The notes: generated by a model not told the origin, from the letters alone. A stretch of DNA of 64,000 nucleotides from a virus (IMGVR_UViG_3300045988_182866); one strand, 5' to 3'; shown: positions 3,738 to 64,000, counted from the stretch's first letter. Made by a program: numbers and translations.

Positions 3738-4814
3738 AATCGCTTCTTGAATTAAAAGTTTTATTTGATCTTTATTTTTCTTCCATTTACTTTCCCAAAT
3801 TTCTATCAATGTAATTCCCCTTTCAATACATTGATTTCTTTTATTTTCATGATAACCCAGATTTCGATCTTCGTGTAATTTATGCCAGTAATCTCCATTA
3901 TATTCAAAGGCTAATTTTAATTCAGGGAGATAAATATCAAGCTCTAATTGATTATCAAGTTGATTTCTAGAATTTTTTATAATTTTTCTTGAATATATCG
4001 AATTAATATATTCAAAAAGTTCTTTTTCACCTTTAGATCTTTTCGAAGCTTTTACACATTTAATACAGCCACTTCCATTTAAATGAATATATGCTCTTTG
4101 TCGAAAGACACCATGCCTTGGACAAATAATATTCACATAATCACGAGCACTTTTATATTCAACTCTTGAATAATCATATTTGTCTCCATGAACTTCTTGA
4201 GCTCTTTTAATAAATTCTTCAGTTGTTAAAAATTGCTTTTCTCTTTTACATTCTGGACATTCATTGCCTTGTAAATGTGACCCTGCATGTTGTCGAAATA
4301 ATCCATGCTTAGGACATATTATTGTTATATGATTTTTTACGCCATTATAAATCACTTTAGAATAATCATAATAATTTCCATGCACTTTTTTAGCTTTTTC
4401 AATAAACTCTTCTCTTGATAAAAGATCTTTTATTTTAGCACAATAAGGACATCCACTTCCATTTAAATGGCTGCCAGCCATTTGTTCAAATTTATGCCCG
4501 CATTTATTACAAATAATCCAAATTTTTGATTTACAATTTACGTATATCGATATTGAATAATTATACTTATCACCATGAACTTTTCTTGCTTTTTCTATAA
4601 ATTTTTCTGTTGTTAACTGTGCCGTGGGAATACATTTAGGACATCCACATCCTCTTAAATGTTCTGATGCTTTTTGCCAAAAATATCCATTCTCAGGACA
4701 ACCAATTTCTATTTTTGCAAGACTACTTTTATATTCAACTCTTGAATAATCATATTTGTCACCATGTATTTCTTTAGCCCTTTGTATAAATTCTTCAGTT
4801 GTTAGCTTTTTCAT
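3717..4814 (-). CDS. Free-standing homing-endonuclease-like protein: 4 tandem ~55-aa zinc-ribbon repeats plus a C-terminal Vsr/DUF559-like PD-(D/E)xK nuclease domain
   Basis: Four repeats of F(I)xxAxxxHGDKYDYSxVxY...IICPxHGxFxQxAxxHLxGxGCPxC. The C-terminus LDIYLPELKLAFEYNGDYWH matches the Vsr-like motif PDIVFPKYRLAIFVDGCFWH. It is a paralog of 8559..9908. Confidence 0.65.
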   Translation of the reverse strand: MKKLTTEEFIQRAKEIHGDKYDYSRVEYKSSLAKIEIGCPENGYFWQKASEHLRGCGCPKCIPTAQLTTEKFIEKARKVHGDKYNYSISIYVNCKSKIWIICNKCGHKFEQMAGSHLNGSGCPYCAKIKDLLSREEFIEKAKKVHGNYYDYSKVIYNGVKNHITIICPKHGLFRQHAGSHLQGNECPECKREKQFLTTEEFIKRAQEVHGDKYDYSRVEYKSARDYVNIICPRHGVFRQRAYIHLNGSGCIKCVKASKRSKGEKELFEYINSIYSRKIIKNSRNQLDNQLELDIYLPELKLAFEYNGDYWHKLHEDRNLGYHENKRNQCIERGITLIEIWESKWKKNKDQIKLLIQEAIKKAESN

Positions 4815-5555: not shown

Positions 5556-8402
5556 TTAAGCGCTAAATTCTGTTGAAATCACGCCAGATCTAGAAGCGGT
5601 CAAGTCAATGAGAATGCGTTCTGCACTACGCGTTGGAGCTGCATATGTTGAGATACGCATTACACCGGCATCGATCTCAGTTTCCGTATTATTCCTTTCA
5701 TCGCAAACAAGAACATAAGAATAGATTGCTCGTTGTTCTTGTAGTGCATCAAATGCTGGAGTTAACACATTTGTTACATTCAAACGGGTGTACAAGGTAT
5801 TACCTTCAAACAGCCATTGCTTGGCTGTATCACGCAACAGTTTAAGAATGTAAAGCATTGTTCTTCGGGCAGAAATTTGATCTAACGCTGAGTCGCGCTT
5901 TATCATAGTTCTAATTCCGTACAACATTGTTCCAGAAGAAGGAGATACGATAATCGGATTAAGAGAAATACGATATAAATCATCTCGTTGCTTTTGCTGA
6001 GTAGAGAAGGAAATATCAAGCACAGAACTTAATACACCATTATTCATGCCAGCGGCAGCTTGCCATGGACCATATAAGGCATCCGTAGCAGCAATCTTTT
6101 GAGCGACAAATCCAGAAGCAGGAGCCCAGAATTGAGTACTGTTTACAGGATCTTGTACCTTTAAGAAATACGGATAAACAGCCATATAAGAGGAAGCTAA
6201 TCCATCATATAAATGCCTGTTAGGCCAGTAGATTGAAGTCGAGAAAGAATGCTTAACATTATCCAGAGCAGTATAAGCTGCATTGACTAAGGGCATTCCA
6301 AATTGTTTTTCAATCTTGTTATCCTTGCCTTCGACGGAAATTTGACGAATTGTATCACCAATGAAGAATACATCGCCTCGTCCGCCTTCTTGCTGAGCAG
6401 AAGCTAATTTTAAGAAAGCCGATTGAATAGCTCGATGATTAGCGATCACTTGTTCAGCCGCGGAAGATAAGGTAGACTTACCAGTACGCATATCCGTTAC
6501 ACCTTGAATAACTTTGGTATCATCGAATAATGCAGCTTCTGGATCATATCCATTCGGATATTGCTCCTTAACTTTATCTTGTTCAGTTGTTTGGCCATCT
6601 CCACGATCGGTATCAGCCTTAATTGCAGCCTGGAGCTTTTCTTTATAGCTTCGATAAGCTGCATCCATAGCTCCAACATAGATAGTTCCCATGCCGCCTT
6701 CTAACAAAAGGTCAACGTCATAGAGTTCTTCATTTTCAACTAATTCAAGAGCAGCCTCGATTTTCTTGGGAAGATTACCAATGATTTTAGAAGCATTATT
6801 GGAACGGGCATATAAACCTAACGGATACATGGAATCACCCATTTCAAAGGTCGGATAATCAGTTGGAATACTTTGAAGAACAGCCTTTGAAATACCGGCC
6901 GGAGAAGCCATGATGTCTTCGATGGAACCCGCCATTTCATCATCAGTCAATGCAATGTCAAGCAATTGCTGGGCATAAATACGAACCTTAATCTTCGGAG
7001 AACCGTCAACATATAGTCCGCGAGAATTTAACGCTCCTGAGAAGTTCGGATTAACAAACATGCGAACTAAAGTATCATTAGCCGTTGTATTCTCAATAAA
7101 GAAGTTAACTGCAGATGTAGTATACTTGGAAGTAGTCTGTCGTCCATATTCTAAGGAAGCATTATATCCTTGAGTAATCAGGGCAGAAAGTTTAAGAGCA
7201 TCTCCAGAATTAGTAGCCTGGCGAACCTTAAAGACGCCTACATTTAATGTATCATTCCATTGAGCTCCGGAAATATCAAAATCAGTGATGGATTCTTCCA
7301 TAACCTGAGAGATACATCCTTTCAACGGAGAAGAAAGCTTAAAGTCAAGGCGTTCATTAGGAACAGTCGTATACTGAAGACCCGTAAGACCTTCTTCAAT
7401 AGAAGCAGGAAGCTGAGTTACAGTCTTAAGCTTGCGCACGGCCGCATAAGAAGTACCAGGATCAGAGAAAGCATTATCGGATAACGCAAGATAAAAACCT
7501 TCAAAAAGATCATTTGTTACCGTCTTGCCAAAGTTAAGAGCTAAGAAAGCAAACTGCCCCAAATCGGCAAGCTGAGTAGAAATAGTTTGAGGAATTGCAT
7601 CGGACCAGTTAAATTCTCCAGAACCATCCAAAGCTTGTCCATTTAAAAATCGATAATACTGTTCAATAGAAATATTAAACTGAACAGGTTCACCGATTAA
7701 AAATGTAGCGGAATCTTCATATTCACCTTTGATACCGGCGGAACCATCTGAATAATTCGTAATAGGCTTAAAGGAATTATTAGCAGATTGAACATAATAA
7801 GTTGCAAAGACAGCATTCTGAGTTGGAACATCTGTTACCTCAGTATATTCAGATCCATTCTTAGTATAGATCGTAACCTTATTGGTGAAATTAGTTAACG
7901 GAGTTCCGGCCTGGTCCATATAATATTGAACCTGCACTTTAGCAGCAATATCAGGAGAAACAGGAGTATAAGAAGTAGAACGGGTTACCTTGGTATAAAG
8001 CTGAACAGATGTATCAATACGTTGTTCAGGGGTAGCTTCATTATAAACTTCTTCAGAATCAATAGCATATCCAAGAGCCGGATAAGCAAGAATAGAAACG
8101 GAAGCAGATTTAGTATCTCCTAAGTCTACACCATAAGGAAGTCGGGAAACACTTACATAAGCAGCAGAATTTAATGCTGCGTCTACTGTTGCATAAGAAT
8201 AGCGCTCAGAACTTGTAACAGGTTCTCCGAATATTTCAACATATTCACTGATTGTCGAAACAGAAGTAACTTCAGAAGTAGGTCCTTGTTGGCTGAAAAT
8301 TGGTATAAAGACCGACGTTCCGGCAGACTGCGCCGCTCGTGTCGATTGGTCGCGTTCCAAAATTTCGACGCCCGGGCTGATAATTGTGGGTGTAATTGCC
8401 AT
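5556..8402 (-). CDS. Tail sheath protein (948 aa, T4 gp18-like)
   Basis: The N-terminus MAITPTIISPGVEILERDQS resembles the gp18 N-terminus (SPGIELKE...). The C-terminal region GIRTMIKRDSALDQISARRTMLYILKLLRD...LFEGN resembles the conserved sheath C-terminal domain (GRTL...VRRLVNYIEKSI). Confidence 0.8.
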   Translation of the reverse strand: MAITPTIISPGVEILERDQSTRAAQSAGTSVFIPIFSQQGPTSEVTSVSTISEYVEIFGEPVTSSERYSYATVDAALNSAAYVSVSRLPYGVDLGDTKSASVSILAYPALGYAIDSEEVYNEATPEQRIDTSVQLYTKVTRSTSYTPVSPDIAAKVQVQYYMDQAGTPLTNFTNKVTIYTKNGSEYTEVTDVPTQNAVFATYYVQSANNSFKPITNYSDGSAGIKGEYEDSATFLIGEPVQFNISIEQYYRFLNGQALDGSGEFNWSDAIPQTISTQLADLGQFAFLALNFGKTVTNDLFEGFYLALSDNAFSDPGTSYAAVRKLKTVTQLPASIEEGLTGLQYTTVPNERLDFKLSSPLKGCISQVMEESITDFDISGAQWNDTLNVGVFKVRQATNSGDALKLSALITQGYNASLEYGRQTTSKYTTSAVNFFIENTTANDTLVRMFVNPNFSGALNSRGLYVDGSPKIKVRIYAQQLLDIALTDDEMAGSIEDIMASPAGISKAVLQSIPTDYPTFEMGDSMYPLGLYARSNNASKIIGNLPKKIEAALELVENEELYDVDLLLEGGMGTIYVGAMDAAYRSYKEKLQAAIKADTDRGDGQTTEQDKVKEQYPNGYDPEAALFDDTKVIQGVTDMRTGKSTLSSAAEQVIANHRAIQSAFLKLASAQQEGGRGDVFFIGDTIRQISVEGKDNKIEKQFGMPLVNAAYTALDNVKHSFSTSIYWPNRHLYDGLASSYMAVYPYFLKVQDPVNSTQFWAPASGFVAQKIAATDALYGPWQAAAGMNNGVLSSVLDISFSTQQKQRDDLYRISLNPIIVSPSSGTMLYGIRTMIKRDSALDQISARRTMLYILKLLRDTAKQWLFEGNTLYTRLNVTNVLTPAFDALQEQRAIYSYVLVCDERNNTETEIDAGVMRISTYAAPTRSAERILIDLTASRSGVISTEFSA

Positions 8403-8558: not shown

Positions 8559-9908
8559 ATGGCAATTAAACGACTTACGACAGAAATTTTTATAGAAAGG
8601 GCCAAAGCAAAACACGGTATAGACAGGTATGATTACTCGGCAACCAATTATACCCATTGTAATAATAAAATTATAATCAAGTGTTTAATACATAATTTAA
8701 TATTTGAAACCTACCCCCATAATCATTTAAGAGGGAATGGAGGTTGCCCTCTATGTGCTAAAGAAGGACGATCTTTATCATGGCAATCTTTTTTAGAAAA
8801 AAGCATCGAAGCTCACGGGCAAAATCGATATGATTATTCATATGCTAAAAAAGAGTATAAAGGAACCAAATCAAAAATTACAATAATATGTAAAAAATGT
8901 GGACATAGATTTGTTCAATTACCTTCTAATCATATAAAAGGCCATGGTTGTATAAATTGTGTAAATTTAGCTAAATCATTTGATAAAAATTTCTTTATTA
9001 AAGAGGCAGAAAAGAAACATGGTATTGGGAGATATGATTACTCAAAAATAAAATATAAAAATTCATATACTCCCATTTATATTATTTGTAATAAATGTAA
9101 TAAAAAATTTTATCAGCAGCCACGAATACATTTAAAAGGAATTGGATGTTCTCATTGTTATTATAAAAGTAAAACATTAACTAAGGAAGAATTTATTAAA
9201 AGCGCTGAAGAAATACATGAAAAAGGAAAATATGATTATTCTAATGTAGAATATATACAGTCTAACATTAAGATTAAAATTAAATGTAATAAATGTAATA
9301 ATATTTTTTGGCAATATCCCCATGAACATTTAAAAGCCAAAGGATGCCGAATTTGTGCAATTAAAGATATTACTGATACAAAAGAAACATTTATTAAAAA
9401 GGCAAAGAAAGTTCATAAGGATTTTTATGATTATTCAAGTATAAAATATATAAATTCTCAAACTTTAATTTATATTAATTGTCCAAAACATGGTTTTTTC
9501 GCACAACGGCCAAATGCTCATCTAAGAGGTCATGGATGTCCGAATTGTGCACTCGCTGCACAAAGATCTCGAGGAGAAATAGAACTTGGAGAATTTATTA
9601 AATCAATTTATTCCAATAAAATTTTAAAAAATTCTAAAACACAACTTGGAAATAAAATGGAATTGGATATATATCTTCCTGAATTAAAACTCGCCATTGA
9701 GTATAATGGCGATTATTGGCATAATTTGAAAGAGGCCAAACATCCTGGCTGCCATGAAGATAAAAGAAACCGATGTAAAGAAAGAGGAATTAAACTTATT
9801 GAAGTTTTAGATACGGAATGGCAAAAGAATAAAGATCAAATTAAAGAATCTCTTAAAAAACAAATTGGAGAACTTATCAAAATTAGCACCAAAATAAAAT
9901 CAGGATAA
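8559..9908 (+). CDS. Free-standing homing-endonuclease-like protein: 5 tandem zinc-ribbon repeats plus a C-terminal Vsr/DUF559-like nuclease domain
   Basis: Five repeats of FIxxAxxxHGxxRYDYS...IxCxKCxxxFxQxPxxHLKGxGCxxC. The C-terminus ELDIYLPELKLAIEYNGDYWH is almost identical to that of 3717..4814. Confidence 0.65.
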   Translation: MAIKRLTTEIFIERAKAKHGIDRYDYSATNYTHCNNKIIIKCLIHNLIFETYPHNHLRGNGGCPLCAKEGRSLSWQSFLEKSIEAHGQNRYDYSYAKKEYKGTKSKITIICKKCGHRFVQLPSNHIKGHGCINCVNLAKSFDKNFFIKEAEKKHGIGRYDYSKIKYKNSYTPIYIICNKCNKKFYQQPRIHLKGIGCSHCYYKSKTLTKEEFIKSAEEIHEKGKYDYSNVEYIQSNIKIKIKCNKCNNIFWQYPHEHLKAKGCRICAIKDITDTKETFIKKAKKVHKDFYDYSSIKYINSQTLIYINCPKHGFFAQRPNAHLRGHGCPNCALAAQRSRGEIELGEFIKSIYSNKILKNSKTQLGNKMELDIYLPELKLAIEYNGDYWHNLKEAKHPGCHEDKRNRCKERGIKLIEVLDTEWQKNKDQIKESLKKQIGELIKISTKIKSG

Positions 9909-36267: not shown

Positions 36268-38681
36268 TGACTAAAAAATATTATTCTACTAATGAATATT
36301 TTCTAATTGATCCGATTACAAAAGAACAAATACCTTATGAAGGCTATGTTCTTGTAGAAAATAATATTCCTTATACATTCGATGATAAAAAAGAACTAGT
36401 CATAGGTAATAATTATACAACAAAGATTAATTTATCTAATGATTTCTTTGATAGATTGTTAGATGTTGATCTTAAATTGCCTTATAATTTAGCTGATTGT
36501 ACTTTTGCAGCTAACGATTTCCTTAAAGCATCTGTTATTAATAAAATTATTAATAATTTAGAAGCAAATAACACCTATATCTTTAAAAATTGTCTTATTG
36601 CTCAAAATGACTTGCCTTTAAGCGAAAAAATCCCAGTTTTATCTCCCCATAGACCATTTGCTTCTGAAGATAAAACTGAATTTGGCCCGGTAGACGGATG
36701 GTTTTATTCCAACATATCTTATAGTACTCCCCAAAATATTTGGAATAAATTAGATTGGCCTGATACTGTTGAGGGTTATAATTGGGGAACTGAAGATATT
36801 ATTGATAGTATTGTTGTTCCAACTAATAAATTTACTGATAAGAAAGATGCCGATGGAAACCCAATGAAACTATATGCTGTTTTTATTGGAAGATCTACTT
36901 CTATTCAGCTGATGAACCTTTACTTATTTCCTTATGATGAATTACAGCAAAGTTCAGATCCTTTATTAAATGAAGGAGACCATGCTGAAGAATTAAATCA
37001 ACGAATGTTTGAAGAAATCTCTTCAATTAATAATCAAAATATTAGTGGTTCTAATGTCAATAATTTGAATATCTTTACATTTTCTAAAATTGATCCAAAT
37101 AACATTGACTCAGCTTCATTTAAAAATATTTCTGGAATAGCTTTAGATGGAAATTACTTGTATGTAATTGATAATCAGTTAAATGGTCTTTTTAAATATG
37201 ATATTTCCAAATGTTTATCTGATCGAGGAGCTGCAACAAATAGAATAATGCTTGTTGACCAAATTCAAGGTTTTGGAGATTTAAATCAGCCTTATCGATT
37301 TAATAATCCACAATCTATTGCGGCATTTGATAATACAATCACTGTCTTCGATAAAGGAAATAATGTAATCAAAGTTCTCGATAACTTCTTCAACCATAAA
37401 TTTACCATTCGTTCAGGCGGATTTATTCGTCAAAATACAAGAACAGTGTCAATTTGCCCTTATGAATTTATTCTTAATGAAGAAACTATAGAAAAAGGTT
37501 CAATTTGGGTAATTACTGAAGCTGCAGATAAAATTATTATTAATATTTTCTCTAATAAAGGAGAATACTTGGGTGATTATCAAGTTCTTTATCTTGAACT
37601 ACTTAAAACTTACTGGTATAATCCTGAAGATGGACAACCTTCTTCAGATGAGCCAATCTATAATCAAGAAATCGTTAAAAAAATTGATTTCTCATATAAT
37701 AATTCAAATTATTTCTATATTGTTACTAATAAACGAATTGTTAAATTTCAGCTGTCTAAATTAACTTATCCGATTGGAATTATTTCTTATTATTACCGTT
37801 CAATTACTCTCGACGATTTAGTTTGGGAAAATGTTTACATGCCCTGGGAAAATGTTCAAGACTTAGGGAATAATTTAATTCCTTGGGATTATGATCGTTC
37901 TACAGAATTATCCGCTTATCCTCAAAATGTTTGTTTTTCCATAACAGGAACTCCTGAATTAAATGAAGATGTTATTTTTAATATCATTGATAATAGAAGT
38001 TATTATGGACAAGGAAAGTTGCAAAGAGTAGATAATTACACAGATAATAAACTACTTTATTATGATAAGAACAGGAACTATACCTATCTTAAAATAAATC
38101 CGGAGGGAGGGGCTAACCCACCAGTTTTAGTGAATACAGGTGATATTGTAGATGAATACCGTCCTTCTGCTCAAAATACCCCGGAAAAAGTTGAAGGTAA
38201 AACATTTGTTATTAAAGAAGAGGAAGTTATTTCTAAGCTCCATAAGAATGTTATCCTTTTCTTTAAAGAACCGAATATTTTAAAGTCTTCTTTATTAAAA
38301 TCTGATATTAACGTTTATTCTGAAGAAGAATTAAGCTTTAAAGATAATCAAGAATACTATAATGTCCTTACATTTAATAAAATTCTTTATAAACTTTTCT
38401 TTAACTTATCAGAAATTAAGAAATATATCTTCGGAACATTTGTTGGAGGTTATAGTATTGACGGGTTGATGACTTATGACCATGTTAAGCCTGATTCATC
38501 TTTTCAGGAATTAGGTTCTGATAAAGAAAATTTCTTCATGGGAGAGAATGAGTTAACATCAATTATCCTTAATAGATGCTTTACCTCAATCTATAATACT
38601 CAAGTAAATATCATCAAGAAAATGCAGACTAGTTTTATTAGTACGCTTAACTATAACATTAATTCTTACCGAATCATCTAA
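36267..38681 (+). CDS. Large structural protein with beta-propeller-like repeats (804 aa)
   Basis: NHL/YVTN-like repeats (GIALDGNYLYVIDNQLNGLFKYD, AFDNTITVFDKGNNVIKVLD). TAATG overlap with the upstream gene. Confidence 0.45.
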   Translation: MTKKYYSTNEYFLIDPITKEQIPYEGYVLVENNIPYTFDDKKELVIGNNYTTKINLSNDFFDRLLDVDLKLPYNLADCTFAANDFLKASVINKIINNLEANNTYIFKNCLIAQNDLPLSEKIPVLSPHRPFASEDKTEFGPVDGWFYSNISYSTPQNIWNKLDWPDTVEGYNWGTEDIIDSIVVPTNKFTDKKDADGNPMKLYAVFIGRSTSIQLMNLYLFPYDELQQSSDPLLNEGDHAEELNQRMFEEISSINNQNISGSNVNNLNIFTFSKIDPNNIDSASFKNISGIALDGNYLYVIDNQLNGLFKYDISKCLSDRGAATNRIMLVDQIQGFGDLNQPYRFNNPQSIAAFDNTITVFDKGNNVIKVLDNFFNHKFTIRSGGFIRQNTRTVSICPYEFILNEETIEKGSIWVITEAADKIIINIFSNKGEYLGDYQVLYLELLKTYWYNPEDGQPSSDEPIYNQEIVKKIDFSYNNSNYFYIVTNKRIVKFQLSKLTYPIGIISYYYRSITLDDLVWENVYMPWENVQDLGNNLIPWDYDRSTELSAYPQNVCFSITGTPELNEDVIFNIIDNRSYYGQGKLQRVDNYTDNKLLYYDKNRNYTYLKINPEGGANPPVLVNTGDIVDEYRPSAQNTPEKVEGKTFVIKEEEVISKLHKNVILFFKEPNILKSSLLKSDINVYSEEELSFKDNQEYYNVLTFNKILYKLFFNLSEIKKYIFGTFVGGYSIDGLMTYDHVKPDSSFQELGSDKENFFMGENELTSIILNRCFTSIYNTQVNIIKKMQTSFISTLNYNINSYRII

Positions 38682-40321
38682 TGGCTCAACAATTTTCATC
38701 TCTTATTAAATTTCGTCGTGGTTTAAAAGAACAGCGATTAAAAACTTCTTTCCAAGAAGGCGAACCTGTTTATGAAACAGATACAAAACGTTTATTCATT
38801 GGAGTAGGAGATAATAATGAAGCTTCTGTTGGTCCTGAAACAGTCGGTGGTATTATTACATCTAATTTAACTTTTATTGGGCCTGCTTCCAGTGATCCTT
38901 CTCCTGATACTGAGCCGCGGTCTTATTCCGGAGACTTAATGTATGCCAATAATAAGCTTTGGAGAATGGGAGACTCTAATTGGGAAGATATTTCTCCTAA
39001 AGTAGATGGGATTACTTTAGCATATAATGCAAATAATGAACTTCAGGTTCTTTCCGGAGCATTTTCTGTTACTGCCGGGAATGGTATCTCTATTACCTCA
39101 GGAAATACTGTCAATATTAAGAATTCTCCTCAAAATATTCTTCAAATTGTTAATGGTGAATTAACAATTCCTCAAGGAAGTATAACCGCCGATTATTTTT
39201 CTACTGAAACTTTTAGTTCTGACTATTTCACAATTATTGGATCTCTTATCCAAATTAATTTAGATCCTAATTATTTTTCTACGACTGGAAATATTAAAAT
39301 TACTAAAGTTCCAGCCGGTGAAAAGAATGATACATTAACAACTGTTGATAATAAACAAGTCGGTACTGTAAATGCTGTCATTACCAATCGTTTAGGAGAA
39401 AGTTCCGGTGGTATTACTCTTGATTCTAATTTAAATCTTCAAATTGATCCTCAAGTAACAGTCATTAATGATGAAACTAATCAAATCACAGGGTTAAAAC
39501 CTGGTATTGGTGATGTTTTAGCAGTGAATGATTCCACCTCTAAAGCCTATAATGGATCTATCTCTGATTATTTTGATGAAGATATTAAATGGACTGGTCA
39601 TGAAAGAACTGAAATAAGTCTTTTTGAAGAAGACCGGTTAAATGCACCCAATCCGATGACCGTTTTTTCTGGCGGCATGATTTTAATGGATATGGGGACT
39701 ACAAAAACCGGAAAAGGATATAAGCGGTATGCCGTCCCGGTTTTTGAATTACCGGAACCACCTGAAATTTATCATATTGAATTGGGAAGTGACAATACTC
39801 CAGGAAGTATTATCGGTGATAACCTTGGAGGAATTCGAGTATGGACCATAGAATCAAATACCAAGCCCATAGAAAATATAGTAGCAGGCAGTAGTATTGA
39901 TTTACTGCATGGGACAAATAGGTTAGAATTAACTTCACCTATTTCTATTCCTCCAGATGGACAAGTTATTGCTAAAAATTATATTGGTACACTTAATTTA
40001 GCGGATTATACTGCCAATAATCCAATTATTCGCCAGGTAACTTATGAAGGCTCAGGAACTCCTGTCACCAGTATTTCAATTGATATATTCAATGTTAATT
40101 CTACTAAAGCCAATTTTACAAAGGTAGAATATGCTTTAGTTTCAGCTCCTGAAACAAATATTAATATTCCAACATTTGATGTACAAGAGAATTCAGAATA
40201 TCCTGGAATTAATAGTTTTGTTAATGTATCAACTTGGCCTTCCGGAGCTCCTAACTGGGAAGATATTTCTTCTGTTACTGTAACTTACAGTGGAACAGTT
40301 ATCAAATATACTATTCACTAA
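38681..40321 (+). CDS. Tail fiber protein with the conserved fiber N-terminal motif
   Basis: N-terminus IKFRRGLKEQRLKTSFQEGEPVYETDTKRLFIGVGD matches the widespread phage-fiber N-terminus (lRRGt...GEPgYetDTgklkIGDG). Confidence 0.6.
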   Translation: MAQQFSSLIKFRRGLKEQRLKTSFQEGEPVYETDTKRLFIGVGDNNEASVGPETVGGIITSNLTFIGPASSDPSPDTEPRSYSGDLMYANNKLWRMGDSNWEDISPKVDGITLAYNANNELQVLSGAFSVTAGNGISITSGNTVNIKNSPQNILQIVNGELTIPQGSITADYFSTETFSSDYFTIIGSLIQINLDPNYFSTTGNIKITKVPAGEKNDTLTTVDNKQVGTVNAVITNRLGESSGGITLDSNLNLQIDPQVTVINDETNQITGLKPGIGDVLAVNDSTSKAYNGSISDYFDEDIKWTGHERTEISLFEEDRLNAPNPMTVFSGGMILMDMGTTKTGKGYKRYAVPVFELPEPPEIYHIELGSDNTPGSIIGDNLGGIRVWTIESNTKPIENIVAGSSIDLLHGTNRLELTSPISIPPDGQVIAKNYIGTLNLADYTANNPIIRQVTYEGSGTPVTSISIDIFNVNSTKANFTKVEYALVSAPETNINIPTFDVQENSEYPGINSFVNVSTWPSGAPNWEDISSVTVTYSGTVIKYTIH

Positions 40322-41181
40322 TGTATAATCCCTTAAAATTACAATCCCCGGTAATTTTACCTCCGGAATCGATAAGTCAAAATTGGATTTCTAAAGAAAA
40401 TTTTGACTTAAAGGAAAACCTTACATTTTCATTTAAACTTAAATCTAGTAATACTTCAGATAAAGAATTGGGATTTTCTATTTTTCTTGTTAATTCTTCT
40501 AATACCGAATCTTTTGGAGCCAGCACAATTAGGTCTGGCTTGACCGATTATTCTACAAAAGGAGAAATTGGAGAAGGATTTAATAAAAATAATGAAAAAT
40601 TGTCCTTAAGATATAATAATATTCAATATGATTTTCTTTTGGACCATGTTTATCCTTATTCAATAAATGATTTGGCTTCTAACCAAAAACCATTTAATAC
40701 AGAAGAATTTCAAAATAATAATATTTTTAGTATTTTATTTGATTCCACAAAAGAATTTTATAAAAACCAGCTTGATTTTTATAAAAATGTTTATTTTGAT
40801 GAAGTACAAGTTAAAGATATTGTTACGGACCAAATTGTAGATCCTTCTACTTATAATTGTCCTATCTTTATTCAAGCTCTGCAAGATTTATATGTAGCCG
40901 AGTTTAAAACAGATCAAAATTTTGATATACTAAATTTAAATTCTGTAACAATTCGATTTTCTTTTGAAAATTATGGTAAATTGTTCAGAATGGATGTTCT
41001 TGAAGCTAATAGTACAGAATATAAAAATGTATGTTTAAAATATTTTGACCTTAATATGAGGCAATATCGTAATCTTAAGCTCGGATATGGAATTGCCAGT
41101 CCAATAATGACTTATAATACTGAAAATATTGCTGATTTTACTATTGATACTTTCCATATTCAAGGTAAGTTGAGAGAGTGA
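40321..41181 (+). CDS. Hypothetical fiber-associated protein (286 aa)
   Basis: Last gene of the + operon. Its TGA stop lies in a GAGAGAG run immediately before the left inverted repeat. Confidence 0.45.
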   Translation: MYNPLKLQSPVILPPESISQNWISKENFDLKENLTFSFKLKSSNTSDKELGFSIFLVNSSNTESFGASTIRSGLTDYSTKGEIGEGFNKNNEKLSLRYNNIQYDFLLDHVYPYSINDLASNQKPFNTEEFQNNNIFSILFDSTKEFYKNQLDFYKNVYFDEVQVKDIVTDQIVDPSTYNCPIFIQALQDLYVAEFKTDQNFDILNLNSVTIRFSFENYGKLFRMDVLEANSTEYKNVCLKYFDLNMRQYRNLKLGYGIASPIMTYNTENIADFTIDTFHIQGKLRE

Positions 41182-41420
41182 AGGTACTTATACTATTCCT
41201 GCTCACGCTCCTCTTGATATAGAGGATCCTCAGACTAACCCATACAATAGTAAACTTATAATTGATGGAATGTCAGGAACTTTCTTCTGTTCTATCTATC
41301 AAGCTAATCCTCAAGCAATCGGATGTTTTCAACTTGTTAATACTTTTAACGAAACAGGCCATAAAAGATATAACGAAGCATTACAGTATGCAACCTATAA
41401 ATTAAACTTTAGTGGCTAAA
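41174..41420 (+). pseudogene. Promoterless, start-less alternative tail-fiber C-terminal cassette
   Basis: It encodes ESEGTYTIPAHAPLDIEDPQTNPYNSKLIIDGMSGTFFCSIYQANPQAIGCFQLVNTFNETGHKRYNEALQYATYKLNFSG*. The frame opens just after an in-frame TGA (41171-41173) and has no ATG. The first 23 aa duplicate the collar segment of the minus-strand fiber. Confidence 0.5.
41177..41245. repeat. Left copy of a 69-bp inverted repeat, encoding SEGTYTIPAHAPLDIEDPQTNPY on the + strand
   Basis: By-eye alignment to the reverse complement of 41820-41888 gives 62/69 identities. Confidence 0.75.
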
Positions 41421-41502
41421 TAAATCAAAGTAATATGACTCCATGAGAAACTAGATCTTATTGCATATCTCTTTCTTATTTGATTAAAATAACTTTAAAT
41501 TT

Positions 41503-41536
41503 AAAAAAGCGGTGAGAACGTTCTCACCGCTTTTTT
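41503..41536. terminator. Bidirectional terminator, GC-rich perfect palindrome GCGGTGAGAACGTTCTCACCGC flanked by A6/T6
   Basis: Read from the sequence. Its T-run overlaps the stop codon of the fiber gene. Confidence 0.65.
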
Positions 41537-43718
41537 ATTTAATTTTAATAAGATAGGTTAAAGATATGTTATAAGGTCTAGTTTCTTTGGGGGCAATAGG
41601 TCCTATTAGGTTACTTAGGTTTAATTCATATTGAACATTAGCAAAAGCCCAATGGTAATCTCTATGTTGTGATAAAAAGTTCGCTTCACTTAGATAAGTT
41701 TGAGAAAAAGCACCAGTTCCACCGACATATAATGGATAACGCTGTCCCCAATTTTGAGAACGAACACAAGTTTTAAAAGTACTTTTGGTTCCTCCTTCTC
41801 CTGAAAGGGAACTTAAGACATATGGATTAGTTTGAGGATCTTCTATATCAAGAGGAGTATGAGCAGGAATAGTATATGTACCTTCACTTGTAATAGTAGA
41901 AGATGTAGTGGAAGCACCTCGAATAAATCTATTTCTTAAGTCTGGCAAATTAAATTGTCCGCCTCCCCCAATTACTGTTAAATGTGAAGTAACTGGATGA
42001 GCCGTAGTATTAAAAGTAATTATAGCTAATCCTTGGCTTAATCGTAAAAATGGAATTCGCCATGGATTAGAATCAGACTCTAACCACCACTTAGACGGTA
42101 CATGGATGTTATAATATCCATCATTTTGAATAGTATAAGTATTTTGCTCATTAATGGTAGCTAACAGTGTACTATTTGTATAGATAGTAACAGGCAATGG
42201 TGTTCTTATGCCGTTCAATACAATACCAAGGCCTTGAGCAGTAATTACTGTTCCCTTCTTCAAATATAAAGACGGTTCATAATCATAAGCAGATTCGCCG
42301 CTTCTATTAATATTAAAGGGGGCAATATTTGTTGTTAATATTCCTTCAAGAACCAATGGTATATCGTTATAAGGCAAACTAGTTCCATCCAATACAAGGT
42401 AAAAATGCCTTTTAACACCTTCATTATCTGGATTCCAAGATTGCCAAACATCTAAATTAATTGATGTAATAGTATTAAAATTAAAAGTATATTGACCGCT
42501 TACAAATTGAGCTGTGTTAGTAACTTCTTCCGGACAATATAAAATATAATTAACATAGCCTTCAGAAAGTTCTACATATGTCCTAGCATTAGAACTATAT
42601 TTGGCATCTATAGTACATTCCATTTCAGGAACTGTTACATTTATTTTTGGTAATTGCTGAAATGTATTATTACCAGTAGCGGGAATCCATAAACAATAAA
42701 TTCCATCCTCGGGAATAATATAAGATCTGTTATCAACAGTAGAAATTAAAGGGCTACCGTCAACTCCAAAAGTTGATAAATTTAATTTTTCTTTATTATA
42801 GATATAAGCTTCGGATGCCCCGGCATTTCCAGCTAAAGTATATCGGGCTCCCTGAATTTGAACAACTGTGTTAGCGGGCAAATAGGCATATTCTGCGTGG
42901 GCAGCCTGATTTGGACTTTGCTCATAATTAATAGTTCTACCAGTTTGCCGCCAACTAATTTTTACAGATGGATTTTCAAATGTATCAGTAGTATTAAATT
43001 CAATATTACTAAATTGGAGTTCATTTTTAACTAGTTCAAAATCTAAATCTCCTTGAGCCTGTAAAGAATTTATTTCTAATTTGGTCAAAGTAGTAATATT
43101 ATTTTCATGAAATAAAGATGCTGCAATAATAGGAAGGCTTAGCCTTAATCTTTTATAAGATAATCTACTTGTACCGACTACCATTCGGTACAAATCAGGG
43201 AAATTATCAAAATTATATTCTTGCCCAGTTAATGAATGCCGATTTTGGCCATCGGCAAAATCATAATAATCCCTGAATCGCTGAGGAAGCAAATTAAGAT
43301 CTTTTTGGGCAATTGCAACCGGAATAACAGTGCCCACTGGAACAGTTTGCTCCATAATTTGATTATCGGTAACAAACTGTTTAATAATTTCAATTAAATC
43401 CTGATGCTCATAATTTCCGGCATTATCGCCGATGAGAATATTATTTTTAGCAGGAGCAACAGTAGGAACATTAGTTTGAGTGCCAAATGTAATCTTATCT
43501 CTTAATTGAGTTTGGCTGACAATTTCTTTTTGAACTTCAATATGTTCAGTACCAATAGACAATGCAGAATTATTACCCATTGAATCAGCAACAGGAACGG
43601 GTGTTAATCCAATACCAGTATCTGAACCGTCATCGGCCGGAGAAACACGTAAAATTCCTCGGAAAGATTTTGAAATTGGCTTTTTTGCTACGTCTCTATT
43701 GTTTTGTTCTGTTGCCAT
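41535..43718 (-). CDS. Tail fiber / receptor-binding protein with a phage tail-collar motif (727 aa), on the strand opposite to the structural operon
   Basis: FNLPDLRNRFIRG...TIPAHTPLD matches the tail-collar domain pattern (FxLPDLRGRF...P.H.H), which lies just upstream of the variable C-terminal tip. Confidence 0.65.
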   Translation of the reverse strand: MATEQNNRDVAKKPISKSFRGILRVSPADDGSDTGIGLTPVPVADSMGNNSALSIGTEHIEVQKEIVSQTQLRDKITFGTQTNVPTVAPAKNNILIGDNAGNYEHQDLIEIIKQFVTDNQIMEQTVPVGTVIPVAIAQKDLNLLPQRFRDYYDFADGQNRHSLTGQEYNFDNFPDLYRMVVGTSRLSYKRLRLSLPIIAASLFHENNITTLTKLEINSLQAQGDLDFELVKNELQFSNIEFNTTDTFENPSVKISWRQTGRTINYEQSPNQAAHAEYAYLPANTVVQIQGARYTLAGNAGASEAYIYNKEKLNLSTFGVDGSPLISTVDNRSYIIPEDGIYCLWIPATGNNTFQQLPKINVTVPEMECTIDAKYSSNARTYVELSEGYVNYILYCPEEVTNTAQFVSGQYTFNFNTITSINLDVWQSWNPDNEGVKRHFYLVLDGTSLPYNDIPLVLEGILTTNIAPFNINRSGESAYDYEPSLYLKKGTVITAQGLGIVLNGIRTPLPVTIYTNSTLLATINEQNTYTIQNDGYYNIHVPSKWWLESDSNPWRIPFLRLSQGLAIITFNTTAHPVTSHLTVIGGGGQFNLPDLRNRFIRGASTTSSTITSEGTYTIPAHTPLDIEDPQTNPYVLSSLSGEGGTKSTFKTCVRSQNWGQRYPLYVGGTGAFSQTYLSEANFLSQHRDYHWAFANVQYELNLSNLIGPIAPKETRPYNISLTYLIKIK
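41820..41888. repeat. Right copy of the 69-bp inverted repeat, inside the fiber gene (collar region)
   Basis: Reverse complement encodes SEGTYTIPAHTPLDIEDPQTNPY. Confidence 0.75.
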
Positions 43719-50504: not shown

Positions 50505-51455
50505 TTAGTTAAGATCAGCGGTTTGTCCATTCAAATAAGCTTCAAGCTCATTCAAGTCAACTTCAGTTGGTTCAGTTGGTTCAGTCGATTCAGAAGAACT
50601 AATTGTCTCAGTCTTGACTGGTTCTTCTCGAGTAAAAGAAGGAATCGGATCCATGCCAACAACAGAAGTAGGAGCAGAAATAGGAGCTACTTTAGCCGTA
50701 GTATCTGGATTAGCCCCCAAGAAAGTTGTCATAAACAACTTCTCAAGTTCAGAAACTTCCATATTTCGTTCAATAGCAGTCAAATCATGTGCTTGCTGAA
50801 GAATCGTATCAATATCAGCCTCACTCAAACCAAGATCACGCTTACGACGAACAAAAGTGGAAGATTTATAAGAAGTAAAATCACCTTGAGGTTCAGCATT
50901 AATATTAAGATTAATACCATCGGCAGAAAGGTCAAAAATTGCCTTCCTCATATCCTCAACATCAAATTCTTCAACAAATTTTTCCTTCTTCTTAGGATCA
51001 TCAGAACAAGCTTCTTCAATAATGTTCTGAAGTTGACGTCCGGCTTGAAGAATCTTAACCTTACCATTATTTTCAGGATTTACTGGATCATTTACAACAT
51101 AAACATTATAATACCAGGATTCCTTATAGTTAAGGCGCTTATCAACATCCTTAAACAAGGCTTCATTACCAGAATTCTTTACCTTAAAATAATATTCAGT
51201 AATAGGGCAAGCTTCGCCATAGGTGCGAGGAGAAAGAACATAAGTCCAGCGACCATCCTTAATAGACCTCCAAGAATACTGGAAAAAATGGAAAATAGAC
51301 TTATGATAGCCAGCACGTCCTTCCTTTACATAAGGAAGAAGACGAACAAGATATTCATTACCAGCTTTAAAAGAAAGCTTTTCAGTATAAAGGCCTTTTT
51401 TAGTATTAGAAGCAAAAAGTTCAGCCGAGGATTGGAAAAAATCATTTAGATTCAT
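50505..51455 (-). CDS. ssDNA-binding protein (T4 gp32-like)
   Basis: WYYNVYVVNDPVNPENNGKVKIL matches gp32 [23 protein letters not shown]. RLLP matches RFLP. There is an acidic C-terminal tail. Confidence 0.8.
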   Translation of the reverse strand: MNLNDFFQSSAELFASNTKKGLYTEKLSFKAGNEYLVRLLPYVKEGRAGYHKSIFHFFQYSWRSIKDGRWTYVLSPRTYGEACPITEYYFKVKNSGNEALFKDVDKRLNYKESWYYNVYVVNDPVNPENNGKVKILQAGRQLQNIIEEACSDDPKKKEKFVEEFDVEDMRKAIFDLSADGINLNINAEPQGDFTSYKSSTFVRRKRDLGLSEADIDTILQQAHDLTAIERNMEVSELEKLFMTTFLGANPDTTAKVAPISAPTSVVGMDPIPSFTREEPVKTETISSSESTEPTEPTEVDLNELEAYLNGQTADLN

Positions 51456-57182: not shown

Positions 57183-58295
57183 TTATTCTTCAATTAATTC
57201 TTCTTCAGTTTCTTCCTCTGGAATATCATGGGCTGAATAACCCCATGCTTCAGGTAAGCGTCGTTCAATTTCAGGATAAATTTTTTCATCCCAAAGCTCT
57301 TTCTTCTTTCGGAAAGCTTTAGCATAACCAAGAGATGTTCCGTCATAAAGATCATAAACACTTCCCCGACGTTCGATAACACCAAGGTTGATTGCTAATT
57401 CAAGTGTTCCATATTCTTCATCCAAACCAGTCTTCCAGCTAAGGTACATAGAACCCTCAATCATTGGACGAATGAAACGATTCTTAACACACATACAACG
57501 CATTTCAATACCAGCAATTCCCTTACCAACTTCATCCTTTTCACCAGAATCTTTTTCTTTAAGATTCTTTTTAGCAAGCTGGACAACTACAGAAGGAAGA
57601 TAACGGCAAGCTTTGCCGCCATTCATGCACTTAACCAAATCTGGGTACATTTCATTTGGATTATCATAAATATGGTTAGTAACCACAAATGTAGTTTTGG
57701 TTAAGCCCCCGTATGTTGTACAAGTTTTCAATAAAGATTTAATTGCCTTTGCAATTGTACCCATATCTGCGGAAGTAGAATCTTTATCCATTCTCTTTGT
57801 TTCCATTTCAGAAAGCATATTTGCAAGAGAATCAATAACTACAAGAAACTTTCCTTCCATGTGTGTTTCTTCAATCTTTTGAAGAAGAGCAAAAATTGCA
57901 TTTCGAACTTGCTCAATGGATTTAGCTGGGAAATACTTAATCTTCTTTGGATCGGCTCCAAGAGATTCAACCATTCTAGCATCAATAGCATTTTCAGTAT
58001 CGAATACTACAGTATACATTCCCATTTTCTGAGCATTTCCCACAATTTTTTGAGCGATAAAGCTCTTACCAGATGCGCTTTCCCCGGCTAAAAGGGTTAC
58101 GCGCCCTTTTGGAATTCCTCCATATAATGATCCAGAAATTACTGCGTTAAGCATCTTGCTTCCTGTATCAATCCACTCATCTACATTAGAAAGAGTGGAT
58201 TGATCTAAGAAAGAAGAATAAGGACTATAATCATCCAATACATCAAAAACTTTTGATGCAAGTTTATTAATATCAACTTTTTCTTCTTCTGCCAT
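57183..58295 (-). CDS. RecA-family recombinase (T4 UvsX-like)
   Basis: Walker A GESASGKSF sits in a RecA-like core (LYGGIPKGRVTLLAGESASGKSFIAQ). The size is typical of UvsX/RecA. Confidence 0.8.
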   Translation of the reverse strand: MAEEEKVDINKLASKVFDVLDDYSPYSSFLDQSTLSNVDEWIDTGSKMLNAVISGSLYGGIPKGRVTLLAGESASGKSFIAQKIVGNAQKMGMYTVVFDTENAIDARMVESLGADPKKIKYFPAKSIEQVRNAIFALLQKIEETHMEGKFLVVIDSLANMLSEMETKRMDKDSTSADMGTIAKAIKSLLKTCTTYGGLTKTTFVVTNHIYDNPNEMYPDLVKCMNGGKACRYLPSVVVQLAKKNLKEKDSGEKDEVGKGIAGIEMRCMCVKNRFIRPMIEGSMYLSWKTGLDEEYGTLELAINLGVIERRGSVYDLYDGTSLGYAKAFRKKKELWDEKIYPEIERRLPEAWGYSAHDIPEEETEEELIEE

Positions 58296-62129: not shown

Positions 62130-62681
62130 TTATTTTATGTCTAGTCTGGCTTTAATAATTGACAAGGCTAAATCATATCCTCCTTGATCTCCGGAAATCC
62201 TATGAGGCTTAATATTAAGATCTCCTAAAAACTTTTCAAGGTCTTTAGCTATTTTATCTGATTCTTCTTCGGTTTGATGCCTTCCAATTGGATTATAAGG
62301 CTTAACCCTGTTGATAAAAAAGTTTAAATTATCATATTGATGATGAGTCTTAACAATCAGCTGAGTTCTTTCGTAAGCACAATTATCATTGCTATAATAA
62401 GCGCTTAGCAATAACGGACTATCGGTAATAATTGCATCAACTTTTCCGTTAACTCTGGATAATTTGAAAGATTGTTTGCCAAAAATATAATTTTGATCTT
62501 CAAAAACTGATTTATTCTCTTCCCATACTTTATCCTTGGCAAATTCGCTGACATATTCACAATTAACACCTAAGCATTTTAAGTTATAAAACAAATATGC
62601 CGCACCCGTTGACTTACCTGCACCAGGTTGTGCAAACAAATTAACCACTAAAGTTCTTTTCACGTTTTCTTTATTTTGCAT
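62130..62681 (-). CDS. P-loop kinase (AAA_33 / polynucleotide-kinase-like kinase domain, or dNMP kinase)
   Basis: Walker A AQPGAGKST plus AIITDSPLL, similar to T4 Pnk GCPGSGKST...IISDTNL. There is no phosphatase domain. Confidence 0.5.
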   Translation of the reverse strand: MQNKENVKRTLVVNLFAQPGAGKSTGAAYLFYNLKCLGVNCEYVSEFAKDKVWEENKSVFEDQNYIFGKQSFKLSRVNGKVDAIITDSPLLLSAYYSNDNCAYERTQLIVKTHHQYDNLNFFINRVKPYNPIGRHQTEEESDKIAKDLEKFLGDLNIKPHRISGDQGGYDLALSIIKARLDIK

Positions 62682-62692: not shown

Positions 62693-64000
62693 TTAAATGG
62701 TGATTCTTTTTGTAATACCATTATGCTTGTCTAATTGAATAATTTCACCGATTCCAGCTTTAAAGAAATCAGGCTTATGAGAAATGAGATAAATCGCCTG
62801 GTCTTCTTTCTGGGCAAATTCTTCTAAAATATTACAAACAATTTCCGAGTTAGTTTTATCCAAAGAAGAATCAAGAATTTCATCATAAAAAGAAACGTTG
62901 TAACTTACGGAACCTTGCAATTTAAGAATATCTCTAAATGCCCATATACAAGCTAAGTCTAGCATTTTAGATTCAGCACCGGAAAGATTTCCATAACTTA
63001 CCATAATTCCTCTTTTATTGAGAATTTCTTCTTCAAATACTTCATTAAATGATAATGAATATTGAGAATTCTGCTTAGTGAGATAATACTTGATTCTAAA
63101 ATTCAGTAAATCAAGAAGCTTTTTAATAATATAAGCCCTGATACCTTCTTCAGAAAGAATAAATCTTGCAATTTCAAATTTAGCTAAAGAAGCATTAATG
63201 TCTTTAATAACTTCTTCTTTTTTGGCTTTTTCTTTTTCGGCTTTTTCAATTAAATCTTTGAATATATCTTTTTCTTCAGATTCCTTCTCATGAACCTGGT
63301 ATTGTTTTAAAAGATCTTCTTTTAATTTTAAAGTATCAGTCTCAGCTTTAATGGCTGACTTATTATTGCTAATTTCCCATTCTAAATCCCTTAACTGGTT
63401 TAACTCTTTTTGCTTCTTTTGCTGAATATCCTGAGCTAGGGCAATAAGTTTGTTTAATTTTTCTTTTTCTTCTTCTTTCTTTAGAAGTTTATCTTGAAGT
63501 TCTTTAATAGAATGTTTAATTTCAATTTGATCTTTATCAGTAAATGGGCGGTTACATTCGGCACAAACTGGACCAAACTTTAATAAGGTATCAATTTTTT
63601 CAGATATAGTCTTTTTTTCATTCTTAATAGCTCCTAAATCAGCAGCTATTCTTATTTGGGCTTCCCGAGTCTTTCCTATATCATTTTTAATAGCATTTAA
63701 AATACTCTCGGAAACCTTTATTTTAGAAAGTCTAGCTTCCTCTTCCTTTAATTTAGAAATCTTTAAGGAAATTTTATGAATATCTTTTTCAATAATTTGT
63801 TTCTCAAGTTCTTTCTTTTGTTTTTGATTGGCAATTCTCTCCAACTCTTTCCTTTGTTTAGAAGTATAATCAAAAATATTAGAATTAATTTGTTCTACAA
63901 GTTTAGATTCTATGTCAAGTTCTCTTTTAGAGATATTAATATCATCCTTAACAAGCTTAAACATTTGAGTTACTACATCAAGATTAAAAAGACTTTCAAT
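62693..64000 (-). CDS. Rad50/SbcC-like recombination ATPase (T4 gp46-like), C-terminal part. The gene probably starts beyond the window end
   Basis: CAEC zinc hook, ABC signature LSGAESKML, Walker B FYDEILD and a D-loop/H-loop (ISHKPDF) are present. The ORF is open to the window edge, so the M at 63964 is probably internal. Confidence 0.7.
   Translation of the reverse strand: MESLFNLDVVTQMFKLVKDDINISKRELDIESKLVEQINSNIFDYTSKQRKELERIANQKQKKELEKQIIEKDIHKISLKISKLKEEEARLSKIKVSESILNAIKNDIGKTREAQIRIAADLGAIKNEKKTISEKIDTLLKFGPVCAECNRPFTDKDQIEIKHSIKELQDKLLKKEEEKEKLNKLIALAQDIQQKKQKELNQLRDLEWEISNNKSAIKAETDTLKLKEDLLKQYQVHEKESEEKDIFKDLIEKAEKEKAKKEEVIKDINASLAKFEIARFILSEEGIRAYIIKKLLDLLNFRIKYYLTKQNSQYSLSFNEVFEEEILNKRGIMVSYGNLSGAESKMLDLACIWAFRDILKLQGSVSYNVSFYDEILDSSLDKTNSEIVCNILEEFAQKEDQAIYLISHKPDFFKAGIGEIIQLDKHNGITKRITI

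Follow-up and report, generated by a model that had tools for sequence, protein, structure and literature searches.

Background

Invertible tail fibre switches are textbook elements of temperate phages and plasmids such as Mu, P1, e14 and p15B, and to our knowledge the switches of these four all need a dedicated serine invertase. In the G segment of Mu (invertase Gin), the C segment of P1 (Cin), the P segment of e14 (Pin) and the Min system of p15B the inverted repeats mark the point at which the constant part of the tail fibre gene gives way to the variable part, and inversion swaps the C-terminal receptor-binding part while leaving the other part silent, with both orientations occurring in natural populations. 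Here we describe a locus of this kind in a 64,000-nt stretch of viral DNA (IMGVR_UViG_3300045988_182866, referred to throughout as the window) in which a 69-bp inverted repeat links the end of a gp12-like tail fibre gene to an alternative C-terminal cassette on the opposite strand. Compared with the Mu-type systems the locus has no adjoining invertase (none in the ~131 kb scanned) and no gix/hix-like site, its repeat variants suggest variable crossovers, and its segment measures ~0.7 kb rather than 3 kb, with no U/U′-type assembly gene and just two partial cassettes and a terminator. The Mu-type phages are temperate, whereas the phage that carries this locus is T4-like; no integrase was detected, and a search of 185,579 representative bacterial genomes gave no match. 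The locus is apparently a smaller switch of the G-segment type, situated inside the gp12-like fibre of a T4-like phage and operating with no dedicated invertase.

Swapping of long tail fibre adhesins among T-even phages by recombination at conserved motifs was reportedly described by Tetart and colleagues in 1998. As at this locus, short conserved coding motifs around a variable receptor-binding segment are the substrates for homologous recombination, but adhesin swapping takes place between genomes whereas the locus described here keeps both alleles, inverted, in one genome and could therefore act as a reversible switch. The isomers of herpes simplex virus and the inverted repeats of plastids flip by general recombination or replication machinery independently of a recombinase; those repeats are kilobases long and their inversion has no coding effect, whereas the present repeat is 69 bp long and its inversion would alter a receptor-binding domain. 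The available portion of a preprint on the Anabaena cyanophages A-1(L), N-1 and Elbi (bioRxiv 10.64898/2026.02.14.705889) describes an invertible region of ~30 kb with inverted repeats of 400-700 nt, for which both isomers occur in close relatives, uncorrelated with phylogeny, and inversion has no assigned recombinase, all of which resembles the present case. In that portion the 30-kb region comprises multiple genes and splices no coding sequence, in contrast to the 0.7-kb intragenic segment considered here, which would rewrite a single C-terminus. Bacterial gene-altering programmed inversions, including those of prophage tail fibres and tail-collar proteins, were reported by Milman et al. 2023 (PMC9881135), in the available part of which intragenic inversions similarly swap variable parts of specificity proteins and the examples are chromosomal or prophage-borne. 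The literature searched contains related concepts but no description of this switch system.

Results and discussion

Layout of the inverted repeat and the two tip cassettes

We consider it likely that the locus is a minimal invertible host-range cassette of a distant T4-like human-gut phage with a genome of roughly 200 kb. The tail fibre gene was called as an ORF (open reading frame) of 727 amino acids at 41535-43718 on the minus strand of the window, the G+C content of which is ~30 %. Its constant part, codons 1-610 (41889..43718, minus strand), was delimited using the ORF, a match to phrog_523 and natural pairs of fibres that differ only in their tips. The next 23 codons lie within the right, fibre-side arm of the 69-bp inverted repeat (41820..41888, minus strand), which encodes SEGTYTIPAHTPLDIEDPQTNPY and forms the constant/variable junction, and are followed by the tip that is now expressed, a W-type allele of 94 codons and a stop (41535..41819, minus strand; …QNWGQRYPLYVGG…ETRPYNISLTYLIKIK). 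The left arm (41177..41245, plus strand) lies at the end of a 286-aa gene (40321..41181, plus strand), whose stop codon (41179-41181) falls inside the arm, and leads into the alternative tip cassette (41246..41499, plus strand), which is silent and in the window a pseudogene. At the centre of the invertible segment the two convergent cassettes share a bidirectional intrinsic terminator hairpin (41502..41537, both strands) of the form A6-stem-loop-stem-T6. The 286-aa gene is the last in a translationally coupled chain of structural genes and borders the switch; its product is the same in two loci of opposite orientation (L009 and L010, see below), the gene being constant in either orientation. 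Neither the 286-aa protein nor the 81-aa read-through of the cassette gave a match in Pfam, PHROG or PDB searches.

A recount of the two arms gave the 62/69 identity that an earlier sequence-only reading of this DNA had reported, with seven differences (T/A, C/T, G/A, G/A, G/A, C/T and C/T) comprising six synonymous third positions and one Ala/Thr change. A repeat finder returned the same outer pair as 41177-41244 and 41821-41888 (68 nt, 91 %). The probability of at least 62 matches in 69 is 1.5e-26, or ~3e-17 when multiplied by all position pairs in the window, where the repeat is present in two copies only. The 574 bp of DNA between the arms, the 94-codon expressed tip and the plus strand running on into …KLNFSG and a stop were likewise as that reading had given them. 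The homology of cassette to fibre extends beyond the 69-nt repeat: alignment of plus strand 41160-41540 with the reverse complement of the fibre 3′ end identified the whole of 41177-41499 as a diverged counterpart, inverted and in frame, of the final ~117 fibre codons. Flanking the hairpin is a second inverted pair, 41446-41499 on the plus strand and its partner 41533-41586 (54 nt, 76 %), encoding ETRSYCISLSYLIKI and ETRPYNISLTYLIKIK respectively, the conserved last beta-strand of the collar fold. The hairpin itself is predicted to fold at -24.3 kcal/mol (z -8.0) on one strand and -23.6 kcal/mol (z -7.7) on the other and is equally stable on both, in keeping with the earlier suggestion that a palindromic terminator serves either orientation. 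As in the Gin, Cin, Pin and Hin systems the inverted repeats sit at the junction of a constant and a variable part, and the opposite strand carries a second variable part that is in frame. What the present analysis adds is that, judged by sequence, the silent cassette is homologous to the tip over its full length and is disabled in the window by two in-frame stops.

We propose that reciprocal recombination between the fibre-side arm and its inverted copy, 574 bp downstream at the stop of the 286-aa gene, would flip a segment of ~0.7 kb made up of the two homologous but diverged cassettes and the single terminator that separates them. The fibre would then end in the other cassette after its 610-codon constant part and 23-codon junction, and the displaced cassette would be left promoterless, start-less and out of frame behind the 286-aa gene.

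Both orientations occur among related phages

Both states of the locus exist in nature and, as seen between genomes, the inversion that relates them is precise. A metagenome collection was scanned for the repeat core, and copies were typed by the sequence on their outer side (fibre body or the end of the 286-aa gene) and on their inner side (normal or alternative tip). The alternative tip used alone as a query returned only small ORFs of 58-96 amino acids; full-length fibres ending in this tip surfaced with the fibre of a flipped locus, L010, as the query. Among the 120 matches listed for the L010 fibre, taken together with protein P0009 and the window fibre, 117 were full-length fibres from public gut metagenomes, of which 72 carried the normal tip, 44 the alternative tip in frame and one a third type, on contigs of up to 205 kb. 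Loci were also fetched around five proteins from pairs of alternative-tip and normal-tip fibres with identical bodies. Thirty-six loci could be classified, 24 as normal and 12 as flipped (the duplicate fetches L001/L007 and L002/L008 being counted), and in all eight flipped loci that hold both junctions the exchange is reciprocal, with the normal tip silent behind the 286-aa gene.

Two flipped loci on contigs of 79.9 kb (L009) and 19.9 kb (L010) read from fibre body through the repeat into the alternative tip and have the normal tip behind the 286-aa gene. L010 encodes an intact fibre of 718 amino acids with the alternative tip, and complete fibres of the flipped state range from 712 to 719 amino acids. 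The central proposal of the sequence-only reading, that inversion would fuse the alternative tip in frame onto the fibre, is therefore realised in related genomes, as is the opposite orientation for which it had suggested a search; the flipped locus, with its tips swapped reciprocally, is present in many long contigs. The closest comparison is between a flipped locus (L025) and a normal one (L038), which have no mismatches in 2400 and 2103 nt of flank and whose 580-nt cores are exact reverse complements, pointing to an inversion that was recent as well as precise. Eight pairs of alternative-tip and normal-tip fibres have identical 613-aa bodies, clusters of bodies at 0.5 % divergence are mixed for tip, and all three body types bear both tips, so that the phylogeny of the body does not predict which tip a fibre has. 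Flipped contigs assembled by MEGAHIT at k119 and k141 derive from k-mers that span the 69-nt repeat, and in L009 and L010 the two arms are non-identical and their distinguishing single nucleotide polymorphisms (SNPs) tie the flanks together, which makes misassembly unlikely as a general cause.

At least three divergent types of fibre body (41889-43718, roughly residues 200-580) exist, and their recombination is independent of the tip. In European Nucleotide Archive (ENA) gene calls two proteins (P0005 and P0008) read the TGA two codons before the repeat as Trp, in the manner of genetic code 4, giving artificial ORFs that join the end of the 286-aa gene to the cassette; these miscalls were the first exposure of the flipped junction in the protein database.

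Decay of the alternative cassette in the window lineage

In the window the cassette frame reads SEGTYTIPAHAPLDIEDPQTNPY…KLNFSG, stop, INQSNMTP, stop, ETRSYCISLSYLIKIT…, with TAA (41417-41419) and TGA (41444-41446) as in-frame stops and the native stop lost, whereas in relatives the cassette is an intact tip of 83 amino acids. The earlier reading had correctly placed a different in-frame tip on the opposite strand, but the 57-aa tip that it described is a truncation, since TAA and TGA interrupt a longer cassette. IMG/VR held two relatives of the window fibre. One of these (L002, 89 % fibre identity) has the same layout and an open cassette frame of 106 codons ending in …ETRPYNISLAYLIKVK and a stop, and the other (L001, 99 % fibre identity) has both stops of the window and a third, TAG, inside the repeat. 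As the cassette of L002 is intact and L001 shares the stops of the window, decay appears confined to the lineage of the window. The nonsense changes form a nested series, from TGA only (P0007 and P0011) through TAA and TGA (the window and L005) to the additional TAG of L001, and the cassette is intact in L002, L009, L010, L013, L015, L017 and L018. The arms of the window rank among the most diverged, with seven differences against none in many genomes, where they are identical at 69/69 positions.

With two nonsense codons in its alternative cassette and the native stop gone, the window lineage most likely can no longer use the switch and is locked on its 94-aa tip. A flip in the window would give a truncated fibre ending …KLNFSG and lacking the last strand that is conserved with gp12. 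A 663-nt contig with a coverage of 0.36 (L004; ena:ERZ15185080 NODE_320775) joins the end of the 286-aa gene to the normal tip in a window-type (W-allele) strain, and strains of this type carry the alternative cassette with the same TAA and TGA stops, so that a molecule of this kind would encode a truncated fibre; this suggests either a rare dead-end recombinant or a chimeric contig, and flipping may persist in the window lineage. Of the three explanations offered previously for the lack of an invertase, that of a frozen relic fits the window lineage and fails for the wider family, in which flipped and unflipped genomes are both found.

Selection on the tips and a distant relative

Substitution patterns indicate that both tips are under purifying selection. 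Within the clade with intact cassettes the ratio of nonsynonymous to synonymous substitution rates (dN/dS) of the alternative cassette is 0.09-0.35 in divergent pairs (dS up to 0.37) and reaches 1.1 in close pairs, where few substitutions make it noisier. For the normal tip the ratio is 0.02-0.13, as measured on the B-type allele of the relatives and not on the W-type allele of the window. These cassette ratios hold in the expressed and the silent state alike. A distant relative (L040, 72 % fibre identity) shares the architecture, with a repeat of 75 nt; its fibre carries a third and longer tip, and the silent tip behind the 286-aa gene is of the normal type. This third tip, borne by protein P0118 (3001-5190), resembles the alternative type (LMNQVLKVSGSGTFECVTGSDGGGPTW…), and the repertoire of cassettes is therefore wider than two alleles. 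The conserved layout, the selection on both cassettes and the high frequency of both states together argue for a selected switch of the receptor-binding end, and inversion probably changes receptor specificity.

Similarity of the fibre to T4 gp12

The fibre matches phrog_523, annotated as tail collar fiber protein, with an E value of 1e-6. In phmmer and hmmsearch comparisons (PDB 1OCY and 5IV5) its LPDLRNRFIRGAS motif aligns with LPDMRGLFVRGSG of gp12, the short tail fibre of T4, and the C-terminus of the tip, ETRPYNISLTYLIKIK, aligns with gp12 ETRPWNISLNYIIKVK; the fibre has both features of a tail collar protein, an LPDLRGRF-type motif and a C-terminal …ETRPxNISLxYxIKxK strand. A Pfam search of the fibre gave S_tail_recep_bd (PF14928) at 18.3 bits, below the cut-off of 23.8, and did not report Collar (PF07484). 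The two elements that align with gp12 bracket the variable part in normal-tip and alternative-tip fibres alike, and on this basis the swapped segment would correspond approximately to the gp12 head plus the closing strand of the collar. In gp12 the head is inserted in the collar, a domain layout reportedly described by Thomassen and co-workers in 2003. Weak but specific matches suggest that the swapped segment is the counterpart of the receptor-binding head and last collar strand of gp12. The 610-aa body is unrelated to gp12 by sequence, and in T4 no alternative cassette accompanies gp12. Near fibre residue 116 there is a second collar-like motif, VTDNQIMEQTVPVGTVIP, which is similar to gp12 VTQNEIDRTIPVGAIMM.

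How the segment may be flipped

No Resolvase, Recombinase, Phage_integrase or transposase family was identified in the ORFs of the 64-kb window, nor in 65 ORFs over ~57 kb to its left (followed along IMG/VR contig 3300045988_182131), nor in ~10 kb to its right apart from TnpB-like genes in one genome. The earlier remark that no invertase or integrase is in sight hence extends from the window to ~67 kb of flanking genome. In particular no serine invertase adjoins the segment, with PF00239, PF07508 and PF00589 all absent from ~131 kb of the roughly 200-kb genome. The crossover consensus of hix and gix sites is an AAACC..GGTTT dyad, and by inspection against this consensus no 26-bp hix/gix/cix-like dyad is present in the 69-nt repeat. 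The window does encode a UvsX-like recombinase of the RecA family (57183..58295, minus strand; PF00154 RecA, E 1e-17), a candidate trans-acting factor for recombination at the repeat, together with a gp32-like single-stranded-DNA-binding protein (50505..51455, minus strand; PF08804, E 2e-14) and a gp46/Rad50-like protein that runs off the window end, leaving its C-terminal two-thirds (62693..64000, minus strand); the 602-aa orthologue in L060 and L061 matches AAA_23/SMC_N. A gp47/Mre11-like gene lies just beyond the window, the 345-aa neighbour of the gp46-like gene in L060 and L061 matching Metallophos.

The repeat shows four main haplotypes, which are mosaic, and one of them (H4) is seen with all four flank combinations. 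The two arms of L009 are reciprocal recombinants, and L010, L028 and L034 imply breakpoints in other intervals, so that breakpoints, placed indirectly, fall in several intervals rather than at a fixed crossover dinucleotide. In L040 the arms differ from each other at 2/66 positions and from main-clade arms at 6-9/66, pointing to concerted evolution of the arms. Nucleotide diversity (pi) of the repeat is 0.058 compared with 0.077 in the 69 nt upstream and is not clearly lower; windows farther away cannot be aligned without gaps. For T4, Singer and co-workers are said to have reported in 1982 that ~50 bp is a sufficient, or minimal efficient, length of homology, which the 69-bp repeat slightly exceeds. 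Since the repeats are mosaic, the arms are homogenised and no recombinase family is found in ~131 kb, general homologous recombination is favoured, and on balance we lean towards it as the process that flips the segment. The agent would probably be phage machinery of the UvsX/gp32/gp46/gp47 type or host RecA rather than a dedicated invertase, and flipping would appear to be recurrent within lineages.

A number of observations weigh against this interpretation. The evidence for orientation is between genomes, and hints from within samples are confined to the L004 contig and to contigs that end at or in the repeat (L006 and L014). The link to gp12 depends on two short motifs with weak E values (about 2e-3 to 4e-3), an AlphaFold2 monomer of the fibre from an alignment of 11 sequences had a mean pLDDT of 40 and a pTM of 0.29, and a change of receptor specificity for either tip is one that we infer. 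Mosaic repeat haplotypes could also stem from recombination between co-infecting strains. Amino-acid variants of the fibre arm at repeat positions 31 and 40 track the body more than the tip, which could also be explained by crossovers falling preferentially within the repeat's inner third, and with a scan that covers ~131 kb a host-encoded or highly divergent recombinase is possible.

The contig of L006 (IMGVR_UViG_3300045988_182131) ends 41 nt into the left arm and that of L014 (ERZ780223 NODE-6684) exactly at the inner end of the fibre arm; these ends may mark branching of the assembly graph from mixed orientations or mixed strains.

Alternative explanations

The strongest competitor is classical site-specific inversion, in which a serine or tyrosine invertase of the host, or of the ~65-70 kb of phage genome outside the scan, works at a crossover site inside the 69-bp repeat, and homologous recombination that has nothing to do with the switch produces the homogenised, mosaic arms as a by-product. 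Repeats that are long are also found in the P1 C segment. The association of positions 31 and 40 with the body, together with three inferred crossovers between positions 40 and 48 (in L009 and L010), fits a preferred inner crossover near the GAGGATCCTC palindrome, and all of the well-studied tail fibre switches, Mu Gin, P1 Cin, e14 Pin and p15B Min, are invertase-driven (introduction of bioRxiv 10.64898/2026.02.14.705889; PMC9881135, in the part available). However, known invertase genes adjoin their segment and ~131 kb around this locus holds no recombinase family, the repeat lacks a hix/gix-like dyad, and L034 implies a crossover between positions 57 and 63. As haplotype H4 occurs on all four flank combinations a single fixed crossover is insufficient by itself. 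We regard this explanation as unlikely overall, and assign the same low standing to the flipping of the segment by a site-specific enzyme that escaped detection.

A less probable alternative is that no switching is under way and that the two orientations are old, stable alleles that go back to a single ancient inversion or a few of them, spread by double crossovers in the flanks and kept by balancing selection. T4-like phages recombine freely, the fibre body, repeat and tips are mosaic among strains, and the orientation evidence, being at the level of contigs and between genomes, is compatible with such alleles. Against this, the flanks of L025 and L038 have no mismatches over 4.5 kb around a core that is an exact reverse complement, and an imported segment would rarely be identical given that the tips of different strains differ by dS up to 0.4. 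Eight pairs with identical bodies and opposite tips speak in the same direction, concerted evolution of the arms within a genome needs exchange within that genome, and the silent cassette is open and under purifying selection in most lineages. We therefore consider stable alleles improbable.

The plus strand copy might instead be a relic in decay, left by an old exchange of cassettes or by partial inverted duplication and functionless in any lineage, as the two to three in-frame stops of the window, L005 and L001 would suggest, one of those in L001 falling inside the repeat. Most relatives nevertheless have an intact cassette, with dN/dS well below 1 in divergent pairs, and the same cassette forms the expressed C-terminus of 44 natural full-length fibres. 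At the level of the family the remnant explanation is contradicted, leaving it very improbable in general and applicable to the window lineage only.

A further possibility raised by the sequence-only reading was a frameshifted or pseudogenised fusion with the 286-aa gene, the cassette being made as a +1 (or -2) extension of the 286-aa protein and both tips displayed on two carriers. In every genome, whichever its orientation, the cassette does lie in the +1 frame of the 286-aa gene and begins 2 nt ahead of that gene's TGA. In the window, however, the cassette frame is closed by a TGA at 41171-41173, two codons 5′ of the repeat, and a stop at this place (TGA or TAA) is kept in all genomes examined. 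Only GAG-AGT is left for a shift, with no slippery motif, and the junction differs in L040 (AGA AGC TGA). Of the collar fold, the LPDLR half is missing from the 286-aa protein, and a silent tip of either type occupies the position behind the 286-aa gene; the proposal does not survive these observations and is highly improbable.

It is scarcely credible that the flipped state is an assembly or library artefact of the inverted repeat, for although identical 69-bp arms can mislead assemblers with k < 69 and L004, at 0.36x, is possibly chimeric, flipped contigs came from many samples and several assemblers, including the repeat-spanning k119/k141 contigs of MEGAHIT, the 44 alternative-tip fibres on record are distinct and arm SNPs link the flanks of L009 and L010.

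A target of a diversity-generating retroelement (Mtd-like) was considered separately and rejected, there being no reverse transcriptase in ~131 kb and the arm mismatches not being adenine-specific, with six of seven at synonymous third positions.

Implications of a possible switch without a dedicated invertase

The logic of splicing by inversion is here found in a distant T4-like phage; the segment measures 0.7 kb, and a scan of about two-thirds of the genome revealed no invertase. Taken further, and tentatively, the locus may represent a programmed and reversible receptor-binding switch of a strictly lytic and prevalent T4-like gut phage, operated by its own recombination-dependent replication so that each burst includes a minority of particles with the alternative head. 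The arms would then be homogenised by gene conversion, and the switch would be lost through nonsense decay in lineages such as that of the window. Should general recombination indeed flip the segment, lytic phages could hedge their host range by means of a short inverted coding repeat alone, and such switches would escape searches for invertible segments that are anchored on recombinases. Ratios of the two orientations in gut metagenomes could on the same assumption report the receptor variant displayed by the host population. A natural series from active switch to locked pseudogene is available.

Prevalence of the phage and other features of its genome

In addition to the genes described above the window encodes a T4-type baseplate protein, sheath, clamp loader, PolB and a DnaB-like helicase. 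The DNA polymerase is 28-30 % identical to those of T4-like phages and cyanomyoviruses, and a blastn search of the locus against 50,697 GenBank phage records gave no match, so that there is no cultured relative for comparison. Related contigs of 195-205 kb come from human-gut metagenomes. An exact copy of a 183-aa AAA_28-like protein (window 62130-62681, minus strand) is present in 4247 blocks of a public assembly collection, which indicates that the phage is very widespread in sequenced samples. The repeat pattern had no match in one genome from each of 185,579 bacterial and archaeal species, giving neither a prophage copy nor a clue to the host, and two proteins at the window edge had no exact match on record.

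A structural ORF of 546 amino acids (38681-40321, plus strand) has a weak Mtd_N (PF18454) match at residues 9-43, with no reverse transcriptase found nearby. Elsewhere in the window an inverted repeat of 49 nt (80 %; 4763-4811 and 9171-9219) lies inside two opposed ORFs and brackets an ORF of 948 amino acids, around which the G+C content is 0.40 compared with ~0.30. Two window ORFs, probably the opposed ones containing this repeat, match DUF4379, a treble-clef zinc finger, and may be homing-endonuclease-like genes. Among the relatives L061 (ena:ERZ28565712 scaffold_78) has two TnpB-like (Cas12f1-like_TNB) genes at 2658-3770 and 6998-8098 near the gp46/gp47-like genes, and L060 has no TnpB-like genes at the place of this insertion and a SegE-type GIY-YIG gene nearby. 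The contig IMGVR_UViG_3300045988_182131 (L042, 138-779, and L045-L056) encodes a PAS-domain protein, a GroEL-like chaperonin, NAMPT, NADAR, a Macro domain, two RNA ligases, ThyA and DHFR, auxiliary genes that are unrelated to the switch.

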